Shown here: piece by piece, positions 8,396 to 28,341 of the stretch
Numbering within the stretch: position 1 is the stretch's first letter
Layout: every line of letters starts with the position of its first letter
Program-made: the position numbers and the translations under genes
From: a virus
Length of the DNA stretch: 32,883 bases
Direction: 5' to 3' (one strand)
Virus record (IMG/VR): IMGVR_UViG_3300049218_000083
Location: 133,861-166,743 of that record
The notes under the pieces: model-generated
The model's input: the letters and a program-made list of their open reading frames with translations, nothing else
Database searches by the model: none
What the model was told of the DNA's origin: nothing

Positions 8396-8664
8396 GTTGC
8401 AGATACCTCGGTTGTTGCAGCGACTACATCAGTGGCTGGCTCGATAGCCAATGCCTTGTCCAGCTTCTGGGTCTTGAAACGCTTTGCCGTTGCATGTGCG
8501 TCGATGAAAAGTTTACGCAAAGAACGCTCATAGCCTTCTGGACCAGCACCCTTGTGAAGCTGACGCAATTCCTTGTTGTGTGTTCCTACTGGAGAAACAC
8601 TCAGATCAGCCAGTCGCTTTAGTTCCCGTGGAAGACGACGGTTGAACGTCGATCGGTTTGCCAT
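8392..8664 (-). CDS. Small basic hypothetical protein (90 aa)
   Basis: GAGG SD upstream; tight packing with neighbours. Confidence 0.75.
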   Translation of the reverse strand: MANRSTFNRRLPRELKRLADLSVSPVGTHNKELRQLHKGAGPEGYERSLRKLFIDAHATAKRFKTQKLDKALAIEPATDVVAATTEVSAT

Positions 8665-9382
8665 TATCTATTTCCTCTTTCAGTAATTCGTCACACTTTC
8701 TCAAAAACCGTTCATGCTGTCCGGCAAGACGAATCTGGAAGTTATGCCAGAAAGACTCCTCGCCAGTCAGCGGATCAGCAAACGTCGTACCAAGACCATA
8801 CCGTGGCATACCGTCCGCAAGAGCCCAGCCTTGCGGAGCCTCGAGTGGAGCAGCTTCAAATTCAGCTGGCATATAGAACTTCACGGGAATACCGTGCTTT
8901 TCACATAGCCAAGTGTACTCTTCAGCCACATCAGATCTCGAAGTTTCTAGAGCCGATGGTCTACCAATCGTCAAGAAGGTTGAATCACTTATCGCCATCG
9001 CGCTAGGAGCCACGAAGACATGCTGACCATTCTGTATATGGTTGGTACGTTGGATGTTTCCAACCAACGACCCATTATACGCTTGTTCGATGTAACTATC
9101 AATGGCTCTATCGTTCAGTGGCACGGCATCGATATCCAGGAACATGATAACATCGAAGTCATACTGTTTTGGAACCTTACCCAAGAATTCTTTTCTGACG
9201 ACTGAACCGTTGAGGTGCCAGGTGCAATCCATCGAGAAACCATGCGGCATCTGTGTCAGGATCTGGAAAAACGGCACATTGCTCTTGTTGAACTTGTCGA
9301 CGACTTTACGTTGTGCCGTGATCGCTTCCTTTGGAATGTTGCTCATGTAGAATGAGAATATTCCTGCTCTTATTTTATCCAT
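8606..9382 (-). CDS. Putative GT-A fold nucleotide-diphospho-sugar transferase
   Basis: Hydrophobic strand + DxD (VIMFLDIDAVPL), SDVAEE acidic motif, late His (FWHNF); overlaps the methyltransferase gene. Confidence 0.65.
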   Translation of the reverse strand: MDKIRAGIFSFYMSNIPKEAITAQRKVVDKFNKSNVPFFQILTQMPHGFSMDCTWHLNGSVVRKEFLGKVPKQYDFDVIMFLDIDAVPLNDRAIDSYIEQAYNGSLVGNIQRTNHIQNGQHVFVAPSAMAISDSTFLTIGRPSALETSRSDVAEEYTWLCEKHGIPVKFYMPAEFEAAPLEAPQGWALADGMPRYGLGTTFADPLTGEESFWHNFQIRLAGQHERFLRKCDELLKEEIDNGKPIDVQPSSSTGTKATG

Positions 9383-10002
9383 ACGAATTTCTCTCTTCTG
9401 TCGTAGACTTTACCAAACAGTTCGCCGACTGCTTGTTTGATTGGTGGATGATGCCAGTCGTCGCCGATCAACACGCCTCCCTTTTTGAGGATGCTTGCCC
9501 AGTTTGATAGGTCATTCTTCACAGAACGATAATCATGGCCGGCATCGATATACACTGCGTCCGGATACAATCCCAACTTCGTGAAGGCGACGAAACCGTT
9601 CTGTGAGTCGATCGGGAATGGTGTGATGTAAGGATCGAGACCCTTGTGGACGTTGTTGGATAGGAACTGCTGATAGAGTGTTGGTCTGCCGTTGACGAGG
9701 TTGAGACGGTTGCCGGGATAATGTTGATCACCGACCCAATGCTCTTCACTCCCCAACCATGTATCTATACAGACAACCTCAAAGTCTTGCGCGTAGTCTA
9801 ACACGACGCTGGTCATCGCTCGCGCGGAGCCGCCCATCCAGGATCCAACTTCGACGATCAGCTTTGGATTGAAATGGGGTGACAGGAACTCTTTGAAACA
9901 AGGATGGTTACTGACAAATCCGTGGCCGTTGAATGGCATGAGTTCAAGATCCTTGTATGGATCATGATCACCAAACAACTTCTTACGAACTATTTGCGCC
10001 AC
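9370..10002 (-). CDS. Class I SAM-dependent methyltransferase (Methyltransf_24-like, probable O-methyltransferase)
   Basis: IVEVGSWMGGS, VVCIDTW, VYIDAGHDY, LKKGGVLIGDDW. Confidence 0.85.
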   Translation of the reverse strand: MAQIVRKKLFGDHDPYKDLELMPFNGHGFVSNHPCFKEFLSPHFNPKLIVEVGSWMGGSARAMTSVVLDYAQDFEVVCIDTWLGSEEHWVGDQHYPGNRLNLVNGRPTLYQQFLSNNVHKGLDPYITPFPIDSQNGFVAFTKLGLYPDAVYIDAGHDYRSVKNDLSNWASILKKGGVLIGDDWHHPPIKQAVGELFGKVYDRREKFVWIK

Positions 10003-10727
10003 GGAAATCCTTCTGGATATCGCTTTGCCATCTCCTCGTTTCCACGAATGAAGAACGAAGAACTGACCGAGATACCTGTACTGTCAGTCGTATAGTTTAC
10101 CGTGTATTTGCCAGTCCCAATACCGGGAGCTGTTGCGGCCAGTGCTTTCACTAATGCTCGATCGACTTCCATCACGTTTGGCTCTCGAGCCTTACGATAC
10201 CAAATCGGAGTGACGAACACCGCAAGGTTCCTGTGAATGAAATAGCAGTTGACATCGACAAGTCTGTCATCCTTGTGTAGGATGGTAGGATAGTCTGGGC
10301 CGAGGCTTTCACAATCATCGTTACACTCGACGCCATTAGCATCGATAACCTTGCGTAGACTCCATCCCCAACCATACTGACCGCTGGTTACAGCCGCGAT
10401 GCAACTCTTGATGTGATTAGCGTCGATGTAATTGTCATCGTCAAGGTACATGACATATTCACCTTCTGCCAGGAAGGTTGCTGCCGCATACATTCGATGA
10501 CCATTCCATCGATCAGCACCAACGATACGTGGCATCTCAATGACTTCGTGTTTGTGGAAACCTTTGATCGATGCGTTGTATCCAATCTGCTTGACTTTGG
10601 AATGTGCAGGTGGCCCATCAGCCATGATGATATGCTGAATGTCAGCGTGCGTTTGTTGCGCAACTGACGCGATGCAGCGCAGTAGTGAATCACGACCAGT
10701 TGTAGCCGTGACGACAGTGACAAGCAT
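9990..10727 (-). CDS. GT2-family glycosyltransferase
   Basis: VTVVTATTGR, SVAQQT, HIIMADG, YVMYLDDDN (DxD), EVDR catalytic region. Confidence 0.88.
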   Translation of the reverse strand: MLVTVVTATTGRDSLLRCIASVAQQTHADIQHIIMADGPPAHSKVKQIGYNASIKGFHKHEVIEMPRIVGADRWNGHRMYAAATFLAEGEYVMYLDDDNYIDANHIKSCIAAVTSGQYGWGWSLRKVIDANGVECNDDCESLGPDYPTILHKDDRLVDVNCYFIHRNLAVFVTPIWYRKAREPNVMEVDRALVKALAATAPGIGTGKYTVNYTTDSTGISVSSSFFIRGNEEMAKRYPEGFPWRK

Positions 10728-10837: not shown

Positions 10838-11071
10838 CTACTCCACCTTTGAATACACATCATCCCAGCGCATGTACGATAGCTCTGGGTCCTTGCAAAA
10901 CATCTCACCTTCGGTCACCAGGCTCGGTCCCCATCTAGCAGAAAAAGCATGGTAAGGAACATCAAGTTTATACTTGAAACCTTTCTCAGTCAACTCGGTG
11001 ACAGTGAACGCTGATTCGATATTACGTCGAACCATGAACCTGTCACCGACTTTGACATCATCGAAGATCAT
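10838..11071 (-). CDS. Hypothetical protein (77 aa, MIFDDVKVGDRF...)
   Basis: The internal ATG at 11071 gives a short overlap with the upstream gene and is preferred over the track start at 11137. Confidence 0.65.
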   Translation of the reverse strand: MIFDDVKVGDRFMVRRNIESAFTVTELTEKGFKYKLDVPYHAFSARWGPSLVTEGEMFCKDPELSYMRWDDVYSKVE

Positions 11072-11903
11072 TAGCTTTGACCACTGCCTCTCGATCAGCC
11101 TGAGTGAAGTTGACAGACGCAGCGCCGACAACACCACGAGATGCTGAGATACTTGAGCTGAGAGTGCTGTACGTCCTCAACATTGTATCCGGTGCCGCAT
11201 CATAAGTCATAGACGACTGTGCAGCGATTCCATAGCTTGCGCCAACGGTGATAGCATCCTGGTTAGCAGCCAAGAATACGAATGCCCAGTTGTAAATGTT
11301 TTTCTGATGGGTGATCATTTCGTTGATTTGTGCACGGTTGTATGTACGACTGTGCAACTCCTGACCGTCAGTCAGAATCACGAAGAAAACCTTCTCTGGA
11401 CGCTCGCTCTCAGGAAGAGCAGCAAGCTTCGCACCAGTTTCGTTGATAGCAACGCCGATAGCGTCCATCAACGGAGTACCTGTTTCGCACAGGTAGTTCT
11501 TATCGTTCAAGTCAGGGATGACGTTCACATCAGCAAAGTCATATGTCTTGGCAACGTTGTGATAACTTGGTGTCACCGTAGTGTTCCAAAGCAAGCCACC
11601 AACTGCATTCGCAGAACCGACGCCGACTGGCGGATAGTTGACTGGAACGACGCCTGGGTTACCAGGAGTTAATGGAAGTGCAGAACCGATAGCAACACCA
11701 CCAACTGCAACTGGCTTGATTGCTGGTTGTGTGTAACCAACAGATTCTTTCGCGAACTGGTAAAGTGACCATGTCAAATTACCTGGCTGAGCCTTTTGAT
11801 CTTTCAGGAACGTGTTGTAACCAGCGATGGTTTGTTCTTTCAAATGTGCCATAGAACCTGAATTGTCCAGGACGAATGTAATGTGGGAATATCCGCTCTT
11901 CAT
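11058..11903 (-). CDS. von Willebrand factor A domain protein
   Basis: MIDAS DNSGS, GTPLMDAIG, ILTDGQE, WAFVFLAANQDA; Pro/Gly/Val-rich insertion. Confidence 0.88.
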   Translation of the reverse strand: MKSGYSHITFVLDNSGSMAHLKEQTIAGYNTFLKDQKAQPGNLTWSLYQFAKESVGYTQPAIKPVAVGGVAIGSALPLTPGNPGVVPVNYPPVGVGSANAVGGLLWNTTVTPSYHNVAKTYDFADVNVIPDLNDKNYLCETGTPLMDAIGVAINETGAKLAALPESERPEKVFFVILTDGQELHSRTYNRAQINEMITHQKNIYNWAFVFLAANQDAITVGASYGIAAQSSMTYDAAPDTMLRTYSTLSSSISASRGVVGAASVNFTQADREAVVKANDLR

Positions 11904-12737: not shown

Positions 12738-12942
12738 TTAGCTTCTTCCTTCGTTCTTCTATTTTGTCAATGACATCCAGCTTCTCATCCTTAGAGTATC
12801 CACTCCATTCTGAGATTTCTCTGAGCGTCCTCAAGCATCCACCACAGTAACCAGTTCGGCTATTGACGCCGCACTGATTCGTACATGGTTGAGTTGGTTC
12901 TCGCTGAACCTCTAACCACCATGCGTCGTTCATACTTCCCAC
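12688..12942 (-). CDS. DUF1289-like Cys-rich small protein
   Basis: PCxxxC...GYCxGCxRTxxEIxxW pattern. Confidence 0.75.
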   Translation of the reverse strand: MGSMNDAWWLEVQREPTQPCTNQCGVNSRTGYCGGCLRTLREISEWSGYSKDEKLDVIDKIEERRKKLNEGTSGERSPSGVLPD

Positions 12943-13412
12943 AATTGGACATTACATTCACGCGCATACTGCCGAACTTTTTCGAACGCTGGACCCCAAC
13001 GAGTCAGCTGTTCTTGGGTTGCCTTCGGTGCTACAAACCGCACGATTCCATTCTGGACCATCTGTACAAAGCATCGATCGCAAGGCATGAATGGCGTGGT
13101 ATATAGCGTGTATCCTTTCACTGGCTCACGAGAGTGTGCCAACGCATTTATCTCACCGTGAATGATACGACTATACTTCTCTTCACGGTTCGCATACAAT
13201 TCAGCCTTGTCAGGCATTCCACGTGGGAAACCGTTGAACCCAACTGAGCACACGCTGTTGTCTGGACGAACAATGACTGCGCCAACCTTGGTTGACGGAT
13301 CCTTTGATCGAGATGAAATGTACTGACACATTTCAAGATAGAAATCATCCCAAGATATTTGAGATGGTGTTCTCCACTCAGGGAGTAGAATCATCGATGT
13401 TAGTTCGTCCAC
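12930..13412 (-). CDS. cd: dCMP deaminase
   Basis: SKDPSTKVGAVIV, GFNGFPRG, HGE, PCxxC zinc motif. Confidence 0.92.
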   Translation of the reverse strand: MDELTSMILLPEWRTPSQISWDDFYLEMCQYISSRSKDPSTKVGAVIVRPDNSVCSVGFNGFPRGMPDKAELYANREEKYSRIIHGEINALAHSREPVKGYTLYTTPFMPCDRCFVQMVQNGIVRFVAPKATQEQLTRWGPAFEKVRQYARECNVQLWEV

Positions 13413-13417
13413 TAGAT

Positions 13418-13642
13418 CTACCTCAAATATTCTCGAATGTCTCTTAGCTGTTTAACTTCACGATGCCATTGACCTGGCAACCCTGGAATGCTGTGAATCA
13501 GATGATAGAAGCTGGCGCTGTTGTAGTCGTCACAACACAACTCCTCAACTATCGCCATCAAATCAATCACACCCTCGGTGCAATATGCTCGATATTCAAG
13601 AGGCAAGTTGCCGCTCGGTGTTTGTTTGATCAGGTAATACAT
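13418..13642 (-). CDS. Hypothetical protein (74 aa)
   Basis: Fills the gap on the coding strand. Confidence 0.6.
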   Translation of the reverse strand: MYYLIKQTPSGNLPLEYRAYCTEGVIDLMAIVEELCCDDYNSASFYHLIHSIPGLPGQWHREVKQLRDIREYLR

Positions 13643-14153
13643 CGCGCGACCTTCTTTGCGAGGCTAGATAATCTTCGTGATAAATGATTTCGCCAGTTTC
13701 CAAGTTTGGACAAAATCCCCAGAATGCATTGTTAATCGTCTTGCCACGCGTGAACGACGTCCACGTCTTACCTGGCTTGGGTATTTCTACCCAGTGTAAA
13801 TTTGCCGGAACTCGAACATCATGACTTTCGTCAGTCGATCTCCAGGTTGTGCAGTCCTGATAGTGCCAACTTCCTGGACCCATCCATTTCGTTCCCCATG
13901 GAGTATGCTGCCAGTATCCACCTTTCAGCACAATCGTGAAATACCAATCCCACGGATGAGTGTGAAACACTGGATCATCTGATCGTAGGAACTGATGAAG
14001 GAATGTGTTGAAAGGGATGTCCTTGCGTTCACGCTTCGTGCTGTCAGCCCAAGCAACATAGTATCTCGTGAGATACGGTTCAACGTTCTCTCGATCATAG
14101 ATCGTGTACTTACGATCATGTTTCTCAAGTTGATTCAGCAACCACTGGAACAT
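13596..14153 (-). CDS. Cupin-fold protein
   Basis: LHQFLRSD...HTHPW...TIVLKGGY...HWVE, matching the two cupin metal-binding motifs. Confidence 0.75.
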   Translation of the reverse strand: MFQWLLNQLEKHDRKYTIYDRENVEPYLTRYYVAWADSTKRERKDIPFNTFLHQFLRSDDPVFHTHPWDWYFTIVLKGGYWQHTPWGTKWMGPGSWHYQDCTTWRSTDESHDVRVPANLHWVEIPKPGKTWTSFTRGKTINNAFWGFCPNLETGEIIYHEDYLASQRRSRDVLPDQTNTERQLAS

Positions 14154-14194: not shown

Positions 14195-15571
14195 TCAACG
14201 AAACCGTTTCAACGATTCATCGTAGAGTTCGTCATTCTTATAGTATTCTTTGAACTTGTCATCGATCTCTTTGTGTTCAGCTAACGCAACCTGGAACTTG
14301 CTGAACCATTTGAACAACTCATCGTCTGACAGCTTTTTCAGCTCAGCATGAATGTTCATGTAGTGTTTCTTAACAGCAAGAGCGATATTAACAGGCTGGT
14401 GTATCGACTCCACAAGCTGCTCTTTCATATCATGTGGAGCGTATTGTGCAATTGGCAAATCACCCGCCATGGTAATCTTCTGAAGTCTGCCATGGTCAGC
14501 GCAGTTGAAGATCTCAATCAGTTTGTTGGTTTTACCAAAGGTCGTGGTCGTGCTAAGGTAAGACAAAGTCGCTGGTGGGTTTGGTTTCGTAAACGTGTAA
14601 TGGTACTGGTCGCTGAAAATCAGAATCAAAACGACGAATGAACCAGTGTGCTGCATGACTTCCCATGTTCTGCCAGTACTGGAGACGTCAATGTAGATAG
14701 CATTCTCAGGTGCTTGGCTTTTCAGATACGCAGCTGCCTCTTTTGGCTGACTCAAGGCTACTTCTCGTGAGAACGGAAGGTAGTATGAATCCACATCATA
14801 AAACGTGTTGTAGATCTTATACAGAAGCTGACAGTCGCGCCCAAGGAACACAGGTCGACGCACATTCTTCAGTTTACGATAGATCATCTCAGAGGCGAAA
14901 AACAACCATGGCAGGTTCAGCTGGTTGGCGAGATCAAACACGTCGGTATGAGAATCCATCCTATCGCGGCGAAATCGAACCTCACGAACGAGCTCGGCAA
15001 GCAATGGAGCCTTGACAATGTTCATGATATCATGCTCAATGCTAGTCAACTGAGGACGACGGTAATGAACTCCGTTTATACCATGCTGCTGGGCTTGTGT
15101 GACGTCGCTTTGTAGGTTATCGCCCAGATGTAACTCAGGTTTGAATACACCGCTCACGCTCCTCCAAAACGAGCCTGTATGCTTACCATTGTTAGACTGA
15201 TAAACGGTGACTTGTTTATCCATGCCTACAGAGCGAACGAGTTTGAGAATATCTGCAGCTGACAAATACATGTCAGAAATCAACGCGTCACCATGACGGA
15301 CCTCGTTGATATTAGTTTGGATCGGGATGGCATTCTCTTGTTCGTAAGCGACTTCGAGACTACAAAGCGCATCAGCCATCACTGGATCGATGACCTGAAG
15401 GTTGACGAGGTGTTGATAGATGTTACGAAGTGACACACCGCGTGCGTTTGCATTCTTACGGTGGAAGAAGAAGTTTGGAATCTCAAGGTCGGCATCCATC
15501 TGCCGCCAGATTGCTTCACCATCGATACACCGTCTTGTGATGAGTGTATCGAATACATCAAATGATCTCAT
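14195..15571 (-). CDS. HAD phosphatase + PRTase-like two-domain protein; putative PRPP-dependent ribofuranosyltransferase
   Basis: N-half HAD motifs SFDVFDTL, ISDMYL, K(HTG), HLGDN..SD. C-half FLGRD..LL, YL..SRE, YIDVSSTGRT (PRPP-loop-like). Confidence 0.65.
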   Translation of the reverse strand: MRSFDVFDTLITRRCIDGEAIWRQMDADLEIPNFFFHRKNANARGVSLRNIYQHLVNLQVIDPVMADALCSLEVAYEQENAIPIQTNINEVRHGDALISDMYLSAADILKLVRSVGMDKQVTVYQSNNGKHTGSFWRSVSGVFKPELHLGDNLQSDVTQAQQHGINGVHYRRPQLTSIEHDIMNIVKAPLLAELVREVRFRRDRMDSHTDVFDLANQLNLPWLFFASEMIYRKLKNVRRPVFLGRDCQLLYKIYNTFYDVDSYYLPFSREVALSQPKEAAAYLKSQAPENAIYIDVSSTGRTWEVMQHTGSFVVLILIFSDQYHYTFTKPNPPATLSYLSTTTTFGKTNKLIEIFNCADHGRLQKITMAGDLPIAQYAPHDMKEQLVESIHQPVNIALAVKKHYMNIHAELKKLSDDELFKWFSKFQVALAEHKEIDDKFKEYYKNDELYDESLKRFR

Positions 15572-15574
15572 GAT

Positions 15575-15841
15575 TTATGGTAGCCTGTAATGTTCCTTTA
15601 CAGCGTTTGGTGCATACTCTTCTACATTGCCTTCGAAGAATTTGTCGAGAACAGCCTTGGCTTGTTCAACAGTTATGCCACATGATTCCGCGTAGCATTT
15701 GAGATGGAAGTCATCACGCTGATCCCTTTCAAGGCGACGAAGATCACCCTTGATCATTGAAAGTGGGTGAATGTGCGGATCATAGTCACCATCAAGTTGG
15801 TTCCGTTTGACAACGCGATCGTATGTCATTGGGTATCCCAT
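15575..15841 (-). CDS. Hypothetical protein (88 aa)
   Basis: TAATG coupling to regA. Confidence 0.7.
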   Translation of the reverse strand: MGYPMTYDRVVKRNQLDGDYDPHIHPLSMIKGDLRRLERDQRDDFHLKCYAESCGITVEQAKAVLDKFFEGNVEEYAPNAVKEHYRLP

Positions 15842-16245
15842 TAGATTTTCTTCTTGGTTCCGATGCTGTACTTGGCGACAAGTTGCCAGTCAGCCTTGTC
15901 CTTGAATGAGATGATCTTTATTTGTGAAAGAGGCGCAACCGCTGTATCAGGGATCTCAGGAAGAATCTTAATCAGTTCCCACTGCTGGAGCAGTTTTGCG
16001 ATGGTGTTACGACGTTGGTAGTCGTTCTCTGTAATTGTCGATGGTTTGCCGTCGAGAGCAAATAGTTCCTTAAAATGAACAATTGCGTATCGACCTTGCT
16101 TATGAAGAATGTGGGCAGATTGGTAGAGAACATTTTCGTTCTTGGCAGCGACACCGATTCGGGTCAACGATTCTCTTACGATGTTAAAGCTGTCTGGCTT
16201 CGTCAGCGTGACTTCCAGTCCTACACCTTTGAATATGTCAGTCAT
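15841..16245 (-). CDS. regA: RegA translational repressor
   Basis: VRESLTRIGVA, LYQSAHILHKQGRYAIVHFKELF, RRNTIA, KYSIG. Confidence 0.97.
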   Translation of the reverse strand: MTDIFKGVGLEVTLTKPDSFNIVRESLTRIGVAAKNENVLYQSAHILHKQGRYAIVHFKELFALDGKPSTITENDYQRRNTIAKLLQQWELIKILPEIPDTAVAPLSQIKIISFKDKADWQLVAKYSIGTKKKI

Positions 16246-16887: not shown

Positions 16888-17320
16888 CCAATAAATGTGG
16901 AAACATTATTGTATAGCGTTTGATGTTGTTATTCCAGTTCGTCAAACATTTTCTGATGTGTGGAATGTCATCACCCATGAAACCCAACGCTCGGTTGCAA
17001 CTATCGTGCAACCAACTCCTAAACTTGTTGGTCTTGTGATTATGGTCCATCGACAAAACATCAACATCCGTTGGTGGCTTGCCACAGTAATCACAAACTT
17101 CAGGCATTGGTGGCGCGGTTCGACGTATTTCTTTTCGAACTTTTCCTGCTATGCTACAACATGACTTGCAAATACTGTTTCGACCGTCGTGACTGTTCTT
17201 ATGCTTGTGGAATCCATTGTACGCAATGTAATTTCCACATTCCCTGCAGTGTTTCCCTGGTGGGAGATCTCCTTCTAGCTCTAGCGGTAGACTAGACCCT
17301 TCATACAAATCGTTTCCCAT
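16871..17320 (-). mobile_element. Free-standing Endonuclease VII-family (HNH) homing endonuclease
   Basis: N-terminal CxxC...CxxC finger; CDYCG, MDHNH.T.KFR.WL...CNRALG; AT-rich; inserted between 44 and 62. Confidence 0.85.
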
Positions 17321-18261
17321 TACTTGATCTCACATTCAACCATCACTTCCGTCAGAAACGCAGCTAGATTGATTTCCTGATCCGCAACCTGCGAAGCATA
17401 TTGCAGATACTTACCCAACAACACAACCAAAATCGGATGAGACTCTGGCTTGAACATATCGTTCATCTTCAGATAGATGTCACGCATGATGACACCCGAA
17501 TCAGCATCCGAGTTGTTTCCAACCCACTTCCGCAACGCTTTGAAGTCTTTGGCTTTCAAGAAGCCAACAATTTCCTCAACCTTGGCATCAGTTGCCTGGG
17601 CAAGAATACCTTCATCGATCGCACCTGACGCAGCATACTTCTGCAGTTCACCCAATGTCCGGCGAAAGTCTGGAAAGAATCGCGTGATAACCGCAGCTAC
17701 CACTTCCTTCTTGTATGGGACATTCTGTTCATCCAGAATACCAAGCGCACGCTTGAAGAAGTCAGCAGCCATCTTCTGTTTGTCAGATTTCTGCAGCTTG
17801 AAGTCAATCGGTGGACATCGGCTATGAATCGCCGGAATGATACGGTTCTTGTGATTACAGGTGAAAATGAAAGAACAGTTTTCACCAAACTCTTCGATCG
17901 GACCACGAAATGCGTCCTGGGCATCAGCAGTCAATCCATCAGCCTCATCCATGATGATGGCTTTGCGGCCACCACCCAACGATACACTAGAGGCGAAGTT
18001 TGGAACCTTGACCTTGATAGTGTCAACACCACGATCCCTACCTGATCCATTCAATAGGATGTAGTCAACACCAATTTCTTCGCACATAGCACGCGCGATA
18101 GTTGTCTTGCCAGTGCCGGGAGTGCCGGTCAGCATCATATTCGGAATTTCACCCTTGTCGACGTATGTCTGGAAGATCTTCTTGGTCACTTCCGGAACGA
18201 TACAATCTACCACTTTCTTCGGGCGATAAATCTCGACCCACAGAATATCATTACCAATCAT
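17320..18261 (-). CDS. 44: Clamp loader large subunit (T4 gp44-like)
   Basis: LWVEIYRP, GTPGTGKTT, DEAD, SRC motif, FPDFR. Confidence 0.97.
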   Translation of the reverse strand: MIGNDILWVEIYRPKKVVDCIVPEVTKKIFQTYVDKGEIPNMMLTGTPGTGKTTIARAMCEEIGVDYILLNGSGRDRGVDTIKVKVPNFASSVSLGGGRKAIIMDEADGLTADAQDAFRGPIEEFGENCSFIFTCNHKNRIIPAIHSRCPPIDFKLQKSDKQKMAADFFKRALGILDEQNVPYKKEVVAAVITRFFPDFRRTLGELQKYAASGAIDEGILAQATDAKVEEIVGFLKAKDFKALRKWVGNNSDADSGVIMRDIYLKMNDMFKPESHPILVVLLGKYLQYASQVADQEINLAAFLTEVMVECEIK

Positions 18262-18273
18262 AAATTCCTCACG

Positions 18274-19005
18274 TCACTGGGTATAGAGTTTCCACGCTTT
18301 CAGGTAATTGTGTTCAGCAATTTCCCATGACCAATTATACTTGATACCACCAAACGATTCGAGATATGATGCTACAACTTCCTTGATTCCATCCTGGCTT
18401 GGCCAGTCTGCACCTTTGGTGACCATCAGACTATCAGCCTCGACAAACAGCGCGATGATGTCAGCACGCTTGCAGCCTTCGGTAATCTTTGATGGTAATT
18501 TGAACTGTTCACGCAAACGCGCATCCAGTTTGCTTTCAATCTCTTTGTACTGTGGCAGTAAGACCTTCCATGGTGATGGAATATCTGCCAGGTACGCTTC
18601 CGTTCCATCATGCAGCAATCCTTCCACTGGATTTCCTAGATCAAGGTCCTGCATGATTTGAGAAACAAGAACACAGTGCTGCGCGACGGAGTAGAACTCC
18701 ACGCAGTGTCCGTTAAATCTGCAGAGCTTGCTGAGTGCAGAAGCTATTACATTAATGTCGAATGGACTTCGATCTATGTAAAAGTTCTTACCATTGACCA
18801 GTTCAATGAACAGGCCATCGGTCATCTTTTCTTTGTATACTTCGTCAGCTTGCTTTGTAGGAACGAACAAGGGATCAACCTCACTGCTTAAATAGCAACA
18901 GGGAACGCAGTGATAAACACCTGGCATCCTGTGACACGAACAAGTACAACCACCGAAAGCTTTCGGCAAGTCCTTGTTGAAATAATTATTCGGAAGAAGG
19001 CTCAT
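18274..19005 (-). CDS. HD-domain 5'-deoxynucleotidase (YfbR/YfdR-like) with a Cys-rich N-terminal extension
   Basis: CRFNGH, YSVAQH, LLHD..EAY..DI.SP.K, KRAD. Confidence 0.85.
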   Translation of the reverse strand: MSLLPNNYFNKDLPKAFGGCTCSCHRMPGVYHCVPCCYLSSEVDPLFVPTKQADEVYKEKMTDGLFIELVNGKNFYIDRSPFDINVIASALSKLCRFNGHCVEFYSVAQHCVLVSQIMQDLDLGNPVEGLLHDGTEAYLADIPSPWKVLLPQYKEIESKLDARLREQFKLPSKITEGCKRADIIALFVEADSLMVTKGADWPSQDGIKEVVASYLESFGGIKYNWSWEIAEHNYLKAWKLYTQ

Positions 19006-20116: not shown

Positions 20117-20737
20117 TTAACGCTTGGCGTATTCGGTAATTTTCACCTGTAATTCTTGCACTGTACCATCATTTCTGATTACAGTTTGCAGCAACGGATG
20201 ACCGATCCATGCCCACTCCGAATAGTGAACCTCTGGATATTGCGGCATGGTTTGAACTGTTCCATCCCAATTGTTTGCTTCGTTGATGGCAACAGCAGTG
20301 CTGTACCAGGCTGGCCTCTCACCACGCATGATCTGTGCAAGCTTGCCGCCAACGTGCATGACCATTTCGATTTCATTTGGAAAGCGAACATCAGTTATGA
20401 CGTAATCCTTGGTCGTGTCCAAACTGCGCAGCAATGCACCAACCCATAGATCCTTTCCGAACACATTGCGACCAGCTTCAGTGCCCATCCATTGGAGCAC
20501 TAGACGTGGTGTGATAGTCTTCTTCAACACAGCTGACCAGTACTCGTCAGGCTGTTCACGAAACGCACGTGATTCCGGTGTGTCACCTTCAAGTAAATGA
20601 CGTGGCCATCCGAAAATAACCGCAACAGCATCTTTCAGAATCTTAGCAAACGATACTGGAGTGAATCCGTCAGCTGCTAGGAGCTCTCCAGCAGTTCCCT
20701 TGCCCGATCCAATGATGCCTAGAAATCCAACGATCAT
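20117..20737 (-). CDS. Deoxynucleoside monophosphate kinase (T4 gp1-like)
   Basis: GIIGSGKG, SFA..LKD, PRLVLQWMGTE, ITDVRFPNE, HYSE. Confidence 0.92.
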   Translation of the reverse strand: MIVGFLGIIGSGKGTAGELLAADGFTPVSFAKILKDAVAVIFGWPRHLLEGDTPESRAFREQPDEYWSAVLKKTITPRLVLQWMGTEAGRNVFGKDLWVGALLRSLDTTKDYVITDVRFPNEIEMVMHVGGKLAQIMRGERPAWYSTAVAINEANNWDGTVQTMPQYPEVHYSEWAWIGHPLLQTVIRNDGTVQELQVKITEYAKR

Positions 20738-20883: not shown

Positions 20884-21110
20884 ACTGGGTCCGCCGTTAC
20901 ACCAAGAACACCCTTGGCATCTGGCTCCGGAAGGCTCAACACCTTCCAAGATTTACCAAGTGGTTCTTCTCCATCTGGTGCCTCTTCAATGATCGCGATG
21001 ACTTCACCAACCTGAACACCTGCTAATCCAAGTTGTTCACGCCTTTCTCCGGTTACAGAAACGACTGAGAACTTACGCAGTTCGAATGAAGTATCGATAC
21101 CCTTGATCAT
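20880..21110 (-). CDS. Hypothetical protein (76 aa)
   Basis: TAATG coupling to the glycosyltransferase gene. Confidence 0.7.
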   Translation of the reverse strand: MIKGIDTSFELRKFSVVSVTGERREQLGLAGVQVGEVIAIIEEAPDGEEPLGKSWKVLSLPEPDAKGVLGVTADPV

Positions 21111-22096
21111 TACAGATTTCCTACCAATTGCGCAACCGCAGCCATGTTACCTTGGAACGCATACGTACCGACGTGGAACGTGCGCATCCATGGACACAAC
21201 CAAATTTCTCCACCCATGTTGCGCCACTGTTGACAGAAGAAATAGTCTTCTGACAAATAACGCTCAGATCCACCGACTTCAACAATTTCACCCTTCTTGC
21301 GTTCACCCAGGTCCTGTTGAATTTCCATCTGACGCTTCTTGTCGATGATGCAATCAAAGTATGCGTGAATGTAACGAGATCCATCAAAGTTAGCTTGACC
21401 GACATGGTCAGGCTTGTAGCTGTACTGAGGATACTGAAGAGCCCAACGCAAGAAGACCTCGCGCTTGATCATCATGTAACCTGTACCGATCTCCATAACC
21501 TTCAGTGGTTCACCGACGTTGAACTGACCTGTTCCAGCAACTGGATTGAAGACATAGTCTCCAATGGTTTGTTCAACTTCCTGAGAGGTCAACTCTTTTG
21601 GAACATCATACAGTGGCTTGGCGATAACTGCCCCATCTGCAGTTGGACCAGCAGCCTGTGCAGCCATGTTTTCAGCAGCAATCTCGATGTTCTTCTCGTT
21701 GACCGTCTTGATCAGGCTATGACGTTTGTTGATAGCTGTAATCGCACTGTTCCACTTGATAGACTTCTTTGGATATGGTGCACCAATGATGTCCTTGTCG
21801 AGTGCCATCAAAGCCAACACATCTTTCGGATCGAAGTGAATATCGGCATCGAGGAACAACAAGTGTGTGTAACCTGAACGCAGGAACTCATCGACCAGGT
21901 AGTTGCGAGCTCGCGTAATCAAGGATTCGTTGAAGATGAATGAGAAGCGATTCTCCATTCCGTACTGACCGCACATACCCTGAAGGTCAAGGCATGCTTT
22001 CATGTACATACCAAGGCACATACCACCATACATTGGAGTGGCGATGAAAAGCTTGTTCTTACGTAGCTGCTCAACACTGATTGATAAATTTACCAT
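21110..22096 (-). CDS. GT-A fold glycosyltransferase
   Basis: FIATPMYGG, ESLITRARN, LLFLDADI (DxD), GTGYMMI.R, YLSEDYFFC, HVG. Confidence 0.85.
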   Translation of the reverse strand: MVNLSISVEQLRKNKLFIATPMYGGMCLGMYMKACLDLQGMCGQYGMENRFSFIFNESLITRARNYLVDEFLRSGYTHLLFLDADIHFDPKDVLALMALDKDIIGAPYPKKSIKWNSAITAINKRHSLIKTVNEKNIEIAAENMAAQAAGPTADGAVIAKPLYDVPKELTSQEVEQTIGDYVFNPVAGTGQFNVGEPLKVMEIGTGYMMIKREVFLRWALQYPQYSYKPDHVGQANFDGSRYIHAYFDCIIDKKRQMEIQQDLGERKKGEIVEVGGSERYLSEDYFFCQQWRNMGGEIWLCPWMRTFHVGTYAFQGNMAAVAQLVGNL

Positions 22097-22165
22097 TTGG
22101 GATCCTGTTCTTGTTATTAGAGGCGGATGATTACCAATAATACCGCAGCAAACTGTAAAAGGAAA

Positions 22166-22732
22166 TCAACCTAAGATCAATTCGTCAATGAGATACTGAA
22201 TGATCTTGTGCTGATCTTCTGGTGTTTCGTTCACATACGTTTCAGACAGCGGCATCAGAACCATGTTTGACATGAGATTTTCGATCTTCGTTTCACGACC
22301 ACGCTTGAACGTATCTGTTTGCGTATCGTTCCGAACTTCATGACGAGCATGAATTGTTGCTGGACTTGCTGTAATGAAGATGATCTTCAGGTCGAGCGTA
22401 GGATCATCCGCAAGCAATTCCAAAAAAGACTGATTGAAAAGACGGTCACCCTCGAACAGCACATTGCCTGTTGTCTCTTTGACAAACTTTACAGCTTGCG
22501 GCTGAACAGCCATTGAGAGGCGATCAGTTCCACCGAACGGTTCACCCTCTGGGTACTTACCGATGATGTGCAAGTTTGATCCAGACATATAGAGTGTAGG
22601 GACTAGCTTCACATCCTCACGCTCAAACCATGTCGCACCTGGTCGACGATCTTCGGTTGACTTGATGAACTTCTTCATTATGGTCGACTTGCCAGTCGCT
22701 GGTTCGCCGCCGATTGCTATAATTTTTCTCAT
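22166..22732 (-). CDS. P-loop nucleotide kinase of the type linked to phage base-modification loci
   Basis: GGEPATGKST, IGKY..GE.FGGTDRLSMAVQP, FEGDRL; ATGA-coupled to the dioxygenase. Confidence 0.8.
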   Translation of the reverse strand: MRKIIAIGGEPATGKSTIMKKFIKSTEDRRPGATWFEREDVKLVPTLYMSGSNLHIIGKYPEGEPFGGTDRLSMAVQPQAVKFVKETTGNVLFEGDRLFNQSFLELLADDPTLDLKIIFITASPATIHARHEVRNDTQTDTFKRGRETKIENLMSNMVLMPLSETYVNETPEDQHKIIQYLIDELILG

Positions 22733-24030
22733 CCGAACAAATGCTCCAATGAACTCTCTTCTTCAAGAGGGTGATATTTGTCAACTAGAACCTGACCAAA
22801 ATTCTGGCCAAGGAACTGATACCATTCATCCGACTCCCACATACCTGGGCTGATTCCATTCCAACCGTTTCTCCAAAGCTTGTGGTCCTGGTTCTTGCGG
22901 CGCGACTCTACAAACTGAAAGCGAGCATCTTCGTATCGTTTCTCACCCAGTTCGAGCATCTTCTCTCGCAAGTAACACACCAGGCTGATACGCTCAAGCT
23001 CGACACCCTCTTTCGCAACGATTGGGGTGTTCCCATGGATGTACTCATGGTTGGAAACCAACAACAAATCACCCGGACGAATGTTCACTGCTGCTCTGAT
23101 CTCTGGGAGAATCAGATAGCCACCTTGATAGTCAAGGTTCTTGGCAACGACAGTTAGGTTCGAGAACCCAGCGGCAAAGTCGCCTGCGTCGCGGTGCGCT
23201 GCTGTACGGAAGTTCTTGTTGACAGTGATAGTCGTCAGTGGTGTTCCAGGAATCCGGAACGCTGGATCGATCTTATCCGCTGCCTCCATCTGTGCAGCAT
23301 ATCGCTTTGGTAAGAACTCCTTGAACGCTGAACTCAGCCGCTCCATGAATGGATAGCAAAGTTTCCAGGTGTCGAAATTCTGTGCCGTGTACGCTGTAGC
23401 TCGACCATACGGAATGCGCGGATACCGATCAAACCAGCCGGCAATACCAGAGTCGACAGGATTAGCGTAGAAGGTATCGCTGATCAAATCAGACAACACC
23501 CACTTGGCTTCTTTGCGGACCTTCTCGAGAGGGAGGCCATAAAGACCGTTCAGCCACTGTTCAAAATCGAACTTGTGTTTCTCTTTCTCGGACGTCAACC
23601 AAACCATGCCGCGAGTGCCCTGCTTCTTGTTAGCCACGAAGCGGATCTGCTCGATGTCAGTTTTCAAGTCTGTGAAATGACTGGAGCCAAGGTCGACAAG
23701 ATATTCGAGAACGTCGATTTGCTCATCAGTCACCCAGTCGCGGTTCAACAGCTTTGGGCCCAGGGAGCCAGCTGCCAGGCCACGGTTTTGAGTGGCGTGC
23801 ACAGCTCCGCGTAGACCGTCATAGGCACCGATCTGTTCAGCCTTGGTAAAGTAATTCTTGCGAAACTTCAGGATGACGTTACTTTCATCGTTCACCTGTT
23901 CAGCACCCATGGGCAGCTTGAGATATACGTCGCAGTCTTCATCCAGCAACGTATCGTAATGAGCCTCGTCTAGAAATTGACCGAGGAGGTGGTCACAATC
24001 ATGTTTCTCGAGAACTAGAACTTTTGTCAT
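22729..24030 (-). CDS. TET/JBP-family 2-oxoglutarate/Fe(II) dioxygenase
   Basis: TTITVNKN..TAAHRD (HxD), GDLLL...IHGNT (distal His), RISLVCY (2OG-binding Arg); C-terminal SLEHLFG. Confidence 0.85.
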   Translation of the reverse strand: MTKVLVLEKHDCDHLLGQFLDEAHYDTLLDEDCDVYLKLPMGAEQVNDESNVILKFRKNYFTKAEQIGAYDGLRGAVHATQNRGLAAGSLGPKLLNRDWVTDEQIDVLEYLVDLGSSHFTDLKTDIEQIRFVANKKQGTRGMVWLTSEKEKHKFDFEQWLNGLYGLPLEKVRKEAKWVLSDLISDTFYANPVDSGIAGWFDRYPRIPYGRATAYTAQNFDTWKLCYPFMERLSSAFKEFLPKRYAAQMEAADKIDPAFRIPGTPLTTITVNKNFRTAAHRDAGDFAAGFSNLTVVAKNLDYQGGYLILPEIRAAVNIRPGDLLLVSNHEYIHGNTPIVAKEGVELERISLVCYLREKMLELGEKRYEDARFQFVESRRKNQDHKLWRNGWNGISPGMWESDEWYQFLGQNFGQVLVDKYHPLEEESSLEHLFG

Positions 24031-24127
24031 GGAATCTTCCGTAATGATGGAACCCAGGCACTGACACCTGGGTCCCGATTCAACCGCATATTCTGGTATA
24101 TATGCGATACCACTTTCATCTACTACA

Positions 24128-24156
24128 ATTCTATACTTTATGAAGAGTCCTGTAAA
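24128..24156 (-). promoter_or_regulatory. Sigma70-type promoter for the dioxygenase-kinase operon
   Basis: TTTACA-N17-TAGAAT about 100 nt upstream of ATG 24030. Confidence 0.7.
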
Positions 24157-24232
24157 GTTACACCATCGTACCTTGTCCTCCGTTTAGAAGTTCACATCGC
24201 TATCGTCATCACCCGTATCCATCACGCTTTCG

Positions 24233-25885
24233 TCACCCGCCAGTCGCGACCAGCTTCGCCATCTCTTCAACCGTCTGGTCGAGAAGGTCGCCGGTAGCCG
24301 CGAGGATGTCCGAAGCGGAAATCGTACGCTTGATACCGAAGGCAGTCACCTCAGCACCGCCAGTGGCCTTGTTCCGGATACAACGCACCGAGTGCTTGTA
24401 TTTGGAGGAAACCGCTGCAACGTTGCGGGGATCGCCGAAAGTCATGGCAGATATGTCGAACGTGGTAGTCTTACCAGCAGCCTGACGGAGCGCGAGAAGC
24501 GCATCCTTCTTGTTACCAGCAGCCGTCGTCGCCGTCTTGGCAGGAGCCATCGGGCTGGAAGCAGGTTTCGGGGCAACAGGAGGCTGGTTAGCCGCAGCCG
24601 CATGAGCATTCTTACGCAAGGCGACCAGCGGATCCTGGGCAGTAGCCGCAGGAGCAACCTTCGCAGCCTGTGCAGGAGCCTGGGCGACGTTCTTCTGGCC
24701 AAACACGATCTTCTTGTCGAGGTCGGCGTCGATCTTCGAGTAGAAGTCCATGTAAACCGTCTTGACTTCGTTGTCGAAACGATTCAAGCACAACTCGATG
24801 GCCTTGCGGCGAGTCTTGAAGATGCAGTAAGCACGAACGATGTGGGTCAACCGGCGAGTGGAGATCACTTCCGAGACCGAACCAGCGGCATAACCCTGGC
24901 GGATCATCTCAGCCCACTTCGCAAGGTGCGCCGCGAACTGCGTCACGTTCAGCTCAGGTTCCGGCTTCAGTTCGTTGAAGAGTTTCTCGAGAATCGACCG
25001 CTCGGTCTTCTCGCTGGGATATTCCTGCTCCACCGTGATGGCGAACCGTTCCAGGAACGCGTCGTTCAGCACGTTGGCACCGATGAAGCGACCGTCGTCC
25101 GAGCCTTTGCCCTTGGTGTTGGCAGTAGCCATCACGTTGAAGCCAGGAGCCGGAGTGATGTACTCACCACGCTTCTTGTTGAAGTAGCCTTTGCCTTCGA
25201 GGATGGGCTGCAAGCACAGGAGGCGCTCAGAGCCATAGTCGGTTTCGTCCAGGAGAAGAACCGCGCCACGCTTCATGGCGACGACGACCGGACCATCGCG
25301 CCACTTGGTGTCACCATTGACCAACTCGTAGGCACCGATCAGGTCGAACTCGTCAGTCTCCTTGGTGATGTTCACGCGGATCAACTCACGCTGTGCCTCG
25401 TTACAAGCCTGGGCGACCATCAGGGTCTTACCGTTGCCGGAGAGCCCAGTGATGTAGACAGGGTAGAAAATCTTCGAGGCGATGATTCCCTTGAGATTGT
25501 TGTAGAAGCCGAAGGGGACGTAGCCAGGCTCCTTCTCAGGGATGAAGTTATCTTTGATCACGGCAGGTTCACCATCCGTGATGTGGAGAACGTTAGCAAC
25601 CGCTGTGGCGACCATGTTTTCGTTGGCCGCCTCGCGCACCACGTTGGCCGGATGCAAGAAACGGGAGTCGGTGGCGTCACCTGCCACGCGGAACTTGCCC
25701 CAACCAGCCTTGTATGTATCGGCGGCGAGGAACCGGGGATTCTTGTAGCCTTTGGCTTTCACGAAGTCATCGACCTGTTTAGAGGTCACGATATCGGTGC
25801 CGTAGAAGGCAGAGATTTCGGCGCAGAACTGCTTCTGCTGCGCTTCATCGTAGGATCGGGATTTAACAGTCACTTCAGTCTCCAT
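24233..25885 (-). CDS. MoxR/CobS-like AAA+ ATPase with a long C-terminal extension
   Basis: GLSGNGKT, LLLDE, ATANTKGKG, AFLERF, ISTRRL. Confidence 0.92.
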   Translation of the reverse strand: METEVTVKSRSYDEAQQKQFCAEISAFYGTDIVTSKQVDDFVKAKGYKNPRFLAADTYKAGWGKFRVAGDATDSRFLHPANVVREAANENMVATAVANVLHITDGEPAVIKDNFIPEKEPGYVPFGFYNNLKGIIASKIFYPVYITGLSGNGKTLMVAQACNEAQRELIRVNITKETDEFDLIGAYELVNGDTKWRDGPVVVAMKRGAVLLLDETDYGSERLLCLQPILEGKGYFNKKRGEYITPAPGFNVMATANTKGKGSDDGRFIGANVLNDAFLERFAITVEQEYPSEKTERSILEKLFNELKPEPELNVTQFAAHLAKWAEMIRQGYAAGSVSEVISTRRLTHIVRAYCIFKTRRKAIELCLNRFDNEVKTVYMDFYSKIDADLDKKIVFGQKNVAQAPAQAAKVAPAATAQDPLVALRKNAHAAAANQPPVAPKPASSPMAPAKTATTAAGNKKDALLALRQAAGKTTTFDISAMTFGDPRNVAAVSSKYKHSVRCIRNKATGGAEVTAFGIKRTISASDILAATGDLLDQTVEEMAKLVATGG

Positions 25886-25954
25886 AAAGTAAGTTCACCA
25901 GGCCAGTAGTTTGAGGGTTAGTGTTACGATAAGAAAGAGGCGCAGTTATCGTTT

Positions 25955-28285: not shown

Positions 28286-28341
28286 GACTCAAATCTACCC
28301 TAGTCATTACGAAAAGGGTAGACCCAACTCGCCGAAAAGTG

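Follow-up and report, generated by a model that had tools for sequence, protein, structure and literature searches.

Why does a T4-type phage replication block contain a gene that resembles enzymes of bacterial capsule and O-antigen synthesis, and what would its product act on? We addressed this question in a window of 32,883 nucleotides (positions 133,861 to 166,743 of IMG/VR virus record IMGVR_UViG_3300049218_000083), which is the right-hand 32.9 kb of a 166.7-kb virus record that is about 98% complete. An intact, uninterrupted open reading frame (ORF) at 14195..15571 on the minus strand encodes a protein of 458 amino acids (aa), which an initial annotation had read as a ribofuranosyltransferase that uses phosphoribosyl pyrophosphate (PRPP), with a HAD phosphatase followed by a glycan phosphoribosyltransferase (gPRT). 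From the ORF, an AlphaFold2 model and structural matches to Haemophilus influenzae Bcs3 and Thermobacillus composti 7SHG, we describe the whole gene as a candidate dual-domain ribofuranosyltransferase (PRP-gPRT, where PRP is the phosphoribosyl-phosphatase); it is a viral member of this known kind of enzyme. The best explanation, to which we assign a probability of roughly 80%, is a soluble bifunctional ribofuranosyltransferase of the PRP-gPRT (CrpP-CriT) type that forms part of a mobile viral glycan cassette.

Scans of the 458-aa protein against Pfam, PHROGs and NCBIfam gave no match (the sole Pfam line, "head fiber," had an E value of 0.095, which is chance level). The family has no model in these three collections, and its members are therefore currently labelled "hypothetical" or "HAD hydrolase." Single-sequence phmmer searches of the PDB found no match for either the whole protein or its C-terminal half, and a megablast search of 50,697 phage records with the 6-kb region that contains the gene likewise found none, while tblastn returned two distant records only, Virus Rctr41k (28% identity) and a faecal phage. 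An exhaustive search of 1.84 billion representative proteins yielded 1,448 representatives at an E value of ≤1e-3; the close relatives (n = 138), of the same length and 33-52% identical, are nearly all unannotated metagenome proteins. The best matches among the UniProt viral structures of BFVD were Klosneuvirus and Terrestrivirus proteins annotated as uncharacterised or "protein kinase," with no phage protein among the matches. An alignment of 57 sequences (A1) served as the source of both the family profile and the AlphaFold2 model. Searched against the PDB, the A1 profile had one significant match, residues 386-610 of Bcs3, which are its CrpP phosphatase (E value = 5e-18); in the alignment, FDVFDTL pairs with FDIFDTL, SDMY with SDMY, the motif III lysine with K548 and GDN..SD with GDNKHAD. 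The proposal of a CrpP-type HAD phosphatase in the N-terminal half was thereby borne out. A 19-sequence profile of the C-terminal half found noise only in the PDB (E value > 0.2). Since this half is undetectable by sequence search, its assignment as a gPRT rests on fold and motifs.

The AlphaFold2 model shows two domains (pLDDT, the predicted local distance difference test, 94.8; pTM, the predicted template modelling score, 0.93). In a Foldseek search with the whole model, Bcs3 (E values of 5e-13 to 1e-11) and 7SHG (1.5e-11) stood far above all other structures. VIA-align superposed the model colinearly on Bcs3 382-974 with 427 of 458 residues aligned (Z = 18.6) and on 7SHG 12-597 (Z = 16.4). 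Residues 1-448 are colinear with both stretches, with the two domains in one polypeptide and the phosphatase first; plain HAD enzymes cover residues 1-174 only, with Z scores of 10-12.7. We placed the N-terminal HAD-type phosphoribosyl-phosphatase (PRP/CrpP-like) domain at residues 1-176 (15044..15571, minus strand), from the A1 profile match to Bcs3 and from HAD structures.

For the C-terminal half, residues 193-458 were folded alone (pLDDT 92.9) and compared by VIA with 48,161 representative chains, without a Foldseek pre-filter. Two chains only reached a Z score of at least 8, namely, CriT of Bcs3 (8a0c_A 621-969; Z = 15.9, root mean square deviation = 3.9, 241 residues aligned) and 7SHG (7shg_B 254-597; Z = 14.4); classical purine phosphoribosyltransferases (PRTases) scored 5.8 or less, the best of them being HPRT. 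Foldseek ordered the matches of this domain similarly, with 7SHG at an E value of 4e-5, Bcs3 at 4e-4 and HGPRTs at about 0.02-0.03. The fold of the isolated domain and the structure search place a gPRT/CriT-like domain with flanking helical bundles at residues 177-458 (14198..15043, minus strand). Structure prediction and superposition had been the check suggested with the initial annotation; in the predicted structure the C-terminal half has a PRTase-like fold, as the annotation's gPRT on a PRTase-like core called for, and the modelling thus supports the earlier reading of the enzyme.

We next considered the predicted catalytic and binding residues, with conservation counted over 109 distant representatives (26-53% identity; phage, giant-virus and bacterial) aligned to the family hidden Markov model. 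All motif strings quoted in the initial annotation are present in the ORF, although their spacing was misstated twice: from DTL to R there are two residues, not one, and from SD to GI seven, not three. The motif match is far beyond chance, with 1,448 relatives and motif residues that are invariant in the 57-sequence alignment. In the phosphatase domain (all motifs on the minus strand), alignment and conservation identify motif I as SFDVFDTLITRR (residues 3-14; 15530..15565), with D5 as the nucleophile and Phe at D+2 as in CrpP (FDIFDTLIRR). The replacement of the second Asp of the canonical HAD DxD by Phe has been described for CrpP (PMC10299916). Motif II is ISDMYL (residues 98-103, with S99 and D100; 15263..15280), motif III is K130 (15182..15184), aligned with Bcs3 K548, and motif IV is HLGDNLQSD (residues 148-156, followed by ...HGI, with G150, D151 and D156; 15104..15130). 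D5, D8, T9 and R13 are kept in 106-108 of the 109 relatives, and D5, S99/D100, K130 and D151/D156 in at least 105.

The active site of Bcs3 CriT comprises S678-R679-D680 in loop 1, S707-R708 plus R712 in loop 2, E818, backbone 821-825 and T825 in loop 3, E874 as the proposed base and S884 in loop 6 (PMC10299916). The phage protein offers a counterpart for most of these (all on the minus strand). After the first strand, FLGRDCQLLYKIY (residues 242-254) holds G244-R245-D246 (14834..14842), which by its strand-to-helix position in the model corresponds to S678-R679-D680, the pyrophosphate- and ribose-binding loop 1. YYLPFSR (residues 263-269) ends in S268-R269 (14765..14770), matched to S707-R708 by conservation and topology. 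The putative PRPP loop IYIDVSSTGRT (14666..14698; IDVSSTGRT is residues 294-302) would bind the 5-phosphate, with D295 for E818 and T302 for T825; the spacing from the acidic residue to Thr is +7 in both proteins. In EIFNCADHG (14489..14515), E353 lies in the helix after the fifth strand and is by topology and conservation the candidate general base (E874 in Bcs3), and N356, H360 and G361 lie in the loop after that helix, the counterpart of loop 6. Conservation of these positions is high: R245 is found in 108 and D246 in 107 of the 109 relatives, S268 in 104 and R269 in 106, and D295 in 105 with Glu in 3 others, and loop positions T/S299, G300 and S/T302 are conserved. Position 244 is Ser in 59 of 109, which gives a Bcs3-like SRD. 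E353 is present in 85 of 85 and N356 in 83 of 85 aligned relatives, and GRD, SR, D295...T302, E353 and N356 are all invariant in A1. From SR to the acidic residue there are 26 residues versus 110 in Bcs3, and the HB-2 helical insertion is missing. The initial annotation had called the protein a compact, stand-alone version, which it is; compactness is, however, the norm of the subfamily and no phage speciality, and we ruled it out as a phage adaptation given that all 109 representatives share the short SR-to-Asp spacing.

A PRTase-like core and a PRPP loop, in the neighbourhood of a dCMP deaminase, a deoxynucleoside monophosphate (dNMP) kinase and an HD nucleotidase, could also be read as a nucleobase phosphoribosyltransferase joined to a 5'-nucleotidase, making an unusual nucleoside for nucleotide metabolism. 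We regard this as very improbable. The Z scores of classical PRTases (5.8 or less) compare with 14-16 for gPRT/CriT, no match to PF00156 appeared even at an E value of ≤1, and the conserved partners of the gene are glycosyltransferases (GTs) and sugar-type methyltransferases. Moreover, an adjacent acidic pair (DD/ED) is lacking: D295-V296 stands in its place, with a hydrophobic residue at position 296 in 98 of 109 relatives, and loop 1 provides the second acid, as it does in CriT. The phage protein agrees with PRP-gPRT (CrpP-CriT) enzymes in every testable feature and lacks those of classical type I PRTases.

Judging from its characterised homologues, a PRP-gPRT of this kind would work in two steps. 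The C-terminal gPRT domain is predicted to bind PRPP-Mg, with R245/D246, S268/R269 and the D295...STGRT loop holding the pyrophosphate, the ribose and the 5-phosphate. E353 probably deprotonates a hydroxyl of the acceptor sugar, which would attack C1 of PRPP, so that ribofuranose-5-phosphate would become O-linked to the acceptor and pyrophosphate would leave. The HAD domain, with D5 as the nucleophile and S99/D100, K130 and D151/D156 assisting, would then strip the 5-phosphate to give a neutral terminal ribofuranose. These steps are drawn from the homologues, and what we observed directly are the fold, the residues and the gene linkage.

We examined gene linkage in 63 viral loci with relatives, comprising 31 close phage loci (37-45% identity) and 32 distant viral loci. 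In 24 of the 31 close loci, no more than 122 nucleotides (nt) separate the gene from an FkbM-type methyltransferase gene (PF05050); the remaining loci either are truncated on that side or fall into the sub-lineage of the window itself. Homologues of three window genes also occurred no more than 3 kb away: a GT2 (18 of 31 loci, usually overlapping the gene start), orf258 (13 of 31) and an Anp1-like GT-A (11 of 31). Two orders recur. On T4-like contigs it is 2-oxoglutarate (2OG) oxygenase, GT2, ribofuranosyltransferase, FkbM, orf258 and gp43, where stop and start codons overlap; the second order, found on a different phage backbone, is ribofuranosyltransferase, FkbM, an Anp1GT::GT2 fusion and orf258. 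FkbM is also fused to homologues of the gene, C-terminally in P0111 and N-terminally in P0129 and P0131, and the coupling to methylation is therefore confirmed; P0061 and P0118 have weak C-terminal Methyltransf_24 matches below the Pfam cut-off. Among the 32 distant viral loci, many of them metagenome-assembled genomes (MAGs) of giant viruses, FkbM stands directly behind the gene in 15.

Several observations accompany these counts. The 2OG oxygenase that heads the operon is of the 2OG-Fe(II) prolyl 4-hydroxylase (P4H) type (PF13640, E value = 1e-14; L002:8449-9264) and, among the 31 close loci, comes first in locus L002 and in 10 similar T4-like ones. The Anp1-like GT fused to GT2 is a protein of ~460 aa (L018:10119-11522 and L025:11996-13378, both on the different phage backbone), a Rosetta-stone link which suggests that both act on the same glycan. 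Loci L033-L063, many of them contigs of giant-virus MAGs, carry HAD-gPRT relatives of 26-32% identity, mostly with FkbM directly behind or fused. The 1,884-aa metagenome protein P0121 matches the query in five separate stretches and possibly consists of tandem ribofuranosyltransferase modules in one giant polypeptide.

Cellular relatives (27-32% identity) come from Rhizobium, Neorhizobium, Acetobacteraceae and others, and their neighbours include GT41, a GT1-methyltransferase fusion and GT2 among the ten commonest neighbour families at 34 bacterial loci; flagellin does not figure among these ten families. An alphaproteobacterial MAG (L066, a 1-Mb contig) holds a phage-type copy of 45% identity with FkbM just upstream; as other bacterial relatives reach 27-32%, this copy is possibly a prophage or a recent transfer.

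In the sub-lineage of the window (the window, L007, L008 and L010), the cassette is dispersed among replisome genes. The GT2 partner (245 aa, with a DDD motif) is encoded at 9990..10727 (PF00535, E value = 2e-7). The orf258 partner, at 8606..9382, encodes 258 aa with an FLDID (DxD-like) motif; it had no Pfam or PHROG match, and its recurrence and its place in the atlas, in virus-only clusters whose nearest named cluster is GT2 (20% of members) at 0.93, make it a possible third GT-A from a virus-only family. Between these two genes lies a Methyltransf_24/CmcI-like methyltransferase of 210 aa at 9370..10002 (PF13578, E value = 4e-16; PF04989, E value = 4e-6), a candidate sugar O-methyltransferase. 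The Anp1-like GT-A partner (328 aa; phrog_1574, E value = 4e-56; PF03452 weak) is at 21110..22096, beside a P-loop nucleotide kinase 3 gene (22166-22732; PF18751, E value = 3e-6) and a TET/JBP dioxygenase gene (22729-24030, 433 aa; PF12851, E value = 2e-23). The kinase and dioxygenase (together 22166..24030) are probable DNA-base hydroxylation and modification genes with a putative link to the ribofuranosyltransferase. Directly downstream of the gene is a 185-aa gene (13596..14153), whose sole match is phrog_4786 "cysteine dioxygenase" (E value = 5e-19) and for which we found no Pfam or PDB match; it is conserved after the ribofuranosyltransferase gene in L007, L008 and L010, in the slot that FkbM holds in most other relatives. 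All of these genes are on the minus strand. Searches of the PDB with phmmer gave nothing useful for GT2, the Anp1-like GT or the 185-aa protein. None of the cassette proteins contains a segment hydrophobic enough to span a membrane, and all are mildly acidic (isoelectric points of 5.5-6.75), which is uninformative on DNA binding.

The gene is thus associated with other glycan-building enzymes (GT2, Anp1-like GT, orf258 and FkbM/Methyltransf_24 neighbours and fusions), and the suggestion that it ribosylates a phage-made glycan finds support in the conserved GT and methyltransferase neighbours and in the fusions. The enzyme belongs to a mobile viral glycan cassette, its regular companions being a sugar-type methyltransferase, to which it is closely coupled or, in some cases, fused, and two or three soluble GT-A enzymes. 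Given this coupling and these recurring GT-As, the most likely role is the addition of one ribose to a short, phage-built cytoplasmic oligosaccharide, with the ribose then O-methylated or extended. The near-constant presence of a methyltransferase partner suggests subsequent O-methylation of the new ribose or of its neighbour, perhaps as a cap, and the two or three GT-A partners are suggestive of a short hetero-oligosaccharide assembled from nucleotide sugars and PRPP of the host.

Several points count against a ribofuranosyltransferase working within such a cassette. The protein shares only 8-17% sequence identity with the solved enzymes. Sequence searches of solved structures miss the C-terminal domain, where residue equivalence comes from fold, loop topology and motif spacing. 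The counterpart of Bcs3 R712 is Ala in the phage clade, with Arg in 46 of the 109 relatives. Finally, the cassette of this phage is spread over 13 kb, and an FkbM gene is absent from its genome.

The second half of our question concerns the carrier of the glycan in this phage. No carrier reaches even odds; we place a virion protein first, a DNA base second, a host envelope glycan third and some other carrier last. Our tentative first choice is cytoplasmic O-glycosylation by the cassette, in which capsid, tail or fibre proteins would receive a short glycan that ends in methylated ribose. Giant-virus particles and some mycobacteriophage particles are glycosylated. In a complete 36-kb phage (G005), the cassette directly follows an 865-aa virion/tail-fibre-like protein, a holin and an endolysin. 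HAD-gPRT genes with adjacent or fused FkbM occur on many contigs of giant-virus MAGs, from which group of viruses the best BFVD matches also come (Klosneuvirus and Terrestrivirus). The P4H-type oxygenase at the head of the operon in 11 T4-like loci would fit glycosylation of a hydroxy-amino acid. Bacterial relatives lie next to GT41-type genes, the cassette enzymes are soluble, and window scans revealed no export genes. The location in this phage speaks against a virion protein, as the genes lie in the early replication block and not among structural genes. The giant-virus and bacterial occurrences, together with the P4H-type oxygenase, point to protein glycosylation at least as well as to DNA.

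Glycosylation of DNA is possible but somewhat doubtful. Here, the TET/JBP enzyme would hydroxylate thymine (or 5-methylcytosine), the Anp1-like GT-A would add the first sugar, GT2 and orf258 would extend it and our enzyme would add ribofuranose. The genes for TET/JBP, P-loop kinase 3 and the Anp1-like GT form an unbroken run (21110-24030) that is 5.5 kb away from ours and shares its replisome block; a gp1-like dNMP kinase, an HD dNMP phosphatase and a dCMP deaminase are also encoded there. TET turned up in relatives G001 and G015 as well. The Anp1-like GT is a cassette partner in other loci, and its R...DAD...EDYF resembles the R...DDD...EDY/F of JGT-like phage DNA GT-A enzymes, which is a lead and not a test. 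All cassette proteins are soluble. Phage GT-A enzymes beside such dioxygenases glycosylate DNA with up to trisaccharides (bioRxiv 10.1101/2023.12.21.572611), and pentofuranose chains on phage DNA are known from RB69/DLP3 arabinosylation (PMC13326640); neither of these two papers on phage DNA glycosylation mentions ribose or PRPP. The genomic record is also less favourable. The TET/JBP gene of the window is 7 kb from the ribofuranosyltransferase gene, and in none of the 31 close loci is a TET gene within 3 kb. Of 15 related records, most of them 5-30% fragments, TET was found in 2 (G001 and G015) and in none of the other 13, among which G005, complete with terminal repeats, has ribofuranosyltransferase-FkbM-Anp1GT::GT2 and neither TET nor a ThyS homologue. 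Giant-virus and bacterial homologues are coupled to the same methyltransferase with no link to DNA. The phage's own genome, when searched, contained neither a C5-methyltransferase nor a ThyS homologue, and the dioxygenase would therefore have to act on thymine; phage T-dioxygenases that do so have recently been reported (PMC13229309). The more specific proposal, in which ribofuranose from PRPP is placed onto an oligosaccharide on a TET/JBP-made hydroxymethylpyrimidine in phage DNA, we consider slightly less probable still.

Two sets of genes in this region merit description in their own right. TET/JBP, the kinase and the Anp1-like GT-A look like a thymine-directed DNA hypermodification set based on 5-hydroxymethyluracil. 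On contig L002, a TET/JBP gene lies about 3 kb from the oxygenase-headed operon; this is the sole searched contig of its group that reaches upstream of the dNMP kinase. The HD-domain dNMP phosphatase-like gene (18274-19005; phrog_318, E value = 6e-52), the gp1-like dNMP kinase gene (20117-20737; PF21448 just under the cut-off) and the dCMP deaminase gene (12930-13412), all on the minus strand, form a set typical of phages that reshape nucleotide pools.

Alteration of a host envelope glycan, in which an O-antigen, a capsule or a lipid-linked intermediate would be modified at the inner membrane face for receptor masking or superinfection exclusion, is unlikely in our estimation. All characterised members of the enzyme kind work on O-antigen or capsule chains, the nearest cellular relatives (Rhizobium, Neorhizobium and Acetobacteraceae) are placed among GT genes, and the G005 cassette follows lysis genes in a moron-like position. 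Yet Pfam scans of the window ORFs revealed no ABC transporter, flippase or polyprenyl-phosphate/lipid-carrier enzyme, transmembrane-strength segments are missing from the cassette proteins, the carrier phage is T4-like and of lytic type, and the same gene pair is found in giant viruses of eukaryotes.

The wider setting of the gene is that of a T4-type phage. Window genes run almost throughout on the minus strand and make up a T4-type replication block with a gp41-like helicase, UvsX, DNA polymerase, gp45, gp46/47, regA, gp62 and endonuclease VII. A gp44-like clamp-loader ORF (17320-18261) was named by synteny; its DLP6 homologue is annotated as a sliding clamp loader subunit. The DNA polymerase is only about 42% identical to cyanomyovirus polymerases, and we therefore regard the virus as a distant T4-like phage. 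The initial annotation was right to place the gene two genes downstream of regA (15841-16245; PF01818, E value = 2.5e-40): its ATG is 3 nt past the stop of an 88-aa ORF, which itself comes next after regA. The GC content of the gene (0.45-0.46) is the same as that of its flanks.

Other features of the window and genome lie outside the cassette. A GC-rich island at window positions 23001-28300 (GC content of 0.52-0.56 versus 0.44-0.49 elsewhere) contains the TET gene, an AAA_5 (MoxR/dynein-type) ATPase (24233-25885) and a 776-aa protein without a Pfam match (25955-28285). A 281-aa protein (11058-11903; phrog_7371) is found again alongside island genes in L007 and L008. A peptide deformylase gene (28342-29076, minus strand; PF01327, E value = 4e-36) lies between the 776-aa protein and gp46. 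Outside the window, an NAMPT-like protein (499 aa; PF04095, E value = 3e-40) adjoins a 279-aa protein (L065:4436-6778, genome positions 101436-103778), and the pair stands beside ClpP. It is probably an NAD salvage or NAD-reconstitution pair, which might in addition boost the supply of PRPP. A search of the phage genome for a PRPP synthetase that would supply the donor gave one weak match, below the cut-off, to the N-domain in this 279-aa protein; as it stands beside the NAMPT-like gene, the protein appears to lie outside the ribosylation system. At the far end of the genome (3769-3990, also outside the window), a second weak GT2 match falls inside another ORF of 458 aa.

To our knowledge, ribofuranosyltransferases that depend on PRPP were not defined until 2022-2023, and then for the synthesis of bacterial capsules and O-antigens only. 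In a literature search that did not extend to the founding 2022 paper, this chemistry was found only for bacterial O-antigens and capsules and no phage enzyme was described, in keeping with the initial annotation, which knew of no characterised phage example. New here are the position among T4-like replisome genes, the TET/JBP cluster close by and the analysis of the cassette. The compact version with intact catalytic residues is a recurrent viral gene, present in T4-like phages, in a small terminal-repeat phage and in giant-virus MAGs, and nearly always coupled to a sugar methyltransferase and soluble GT-A enzymes, which implies that viruses may themselves build ribose-containing, probably methyl-capped glycans from PRPP, a donor that every host supplies. 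If DNA carries the glycan, anti-restriction hypermodification would gain new chemistry, and ribose there would be the first ribose-containing DNA hypermodification and the first addition of a sugar to DNA from PRPP instead of a nucleotide-sugar. If the glycan is on virions, the cassette would provide a defined system for the glycosylation of phage particles. With four or five small soluble proteins, it should be easily reconstituted in Escherichia coli.

Among known systems, CrpP-CriT of Bcs3 has the same order of a HAD phosphatase and then a PRPP-dependent ribose-5-phosphate transferase, the same atypical motif I (FD[VI]FDTL, with the first Asp only), aligned motifs II-IV, and loops 1, 2 and 3 and the Glu after the fifth strand in the same order. 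The phage protein differs in standing alone with 458 aa, versus about 660 aa within a 1,215-aa polymerase, and in having no CroT, SH3b or HB-2 insertion; Asp replaces Glu818 and Ala replaces Arg712 at 8-17% identity, and its gene belongs to a virus and has no capsule export genes beside it. The stand-alone PRP-gPRT enzymes (T. composti 7SHG; Klebsiella pneumoniae ORF5(O4) and ORF7(O7) [PMC11231755]) are likewise two-domain proteins beside separate GTs. The phage protein is 10-16% identical to the stand-alone bacterial enzymes and about 130 residues shorter than 7SHG (458 versus 591). These stand-alone enzymes have a polymerisation role in ABC-transporter O-antigen loci, whereas the phage gene has no transporter and has a methyltransferase partner.

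Type I PRTases (HGPRT and XGPRT; PF00156) share the five-stranded parallel core and a 5-phosphate loop of the form (S/T)-G-x-(S/T) after an acidic residue; they differ from the phage protein in their adjacent DD pair and hood domain, and the expected phage product is an O-glycoside, not an N-glycoside. The three-component polyprenyl-phosphoribose route (PMC11127046) also starts from PRPP and includes a phosphatase step; that route is membrane-bound and extracytoplasmic, unlike the phage proteins examined, which have no transmembrane-strength segment. Phage DNA glycosylation (T4 alpha/beta-GT, the 5mYOX(TET) GT-A/GT-B clusters and RB69/DLP3) differs in its donors, which are nucleoside diphosphate sugars, proposed or used (bioRxiv 10.1101/2023.12.21.572611 and PMC13326640); across the loci and the mostly fragmentary records searched, the link of our gene to TET does not appear to be conserved. 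Such DNA glycosylation resembles the phage system in its soluble GTs among replication genes, in the TET/JBP, kinase and GT-A cluster that the same window contains and in the oligosaccharide and pentofuranose decorations known from phage DNA.

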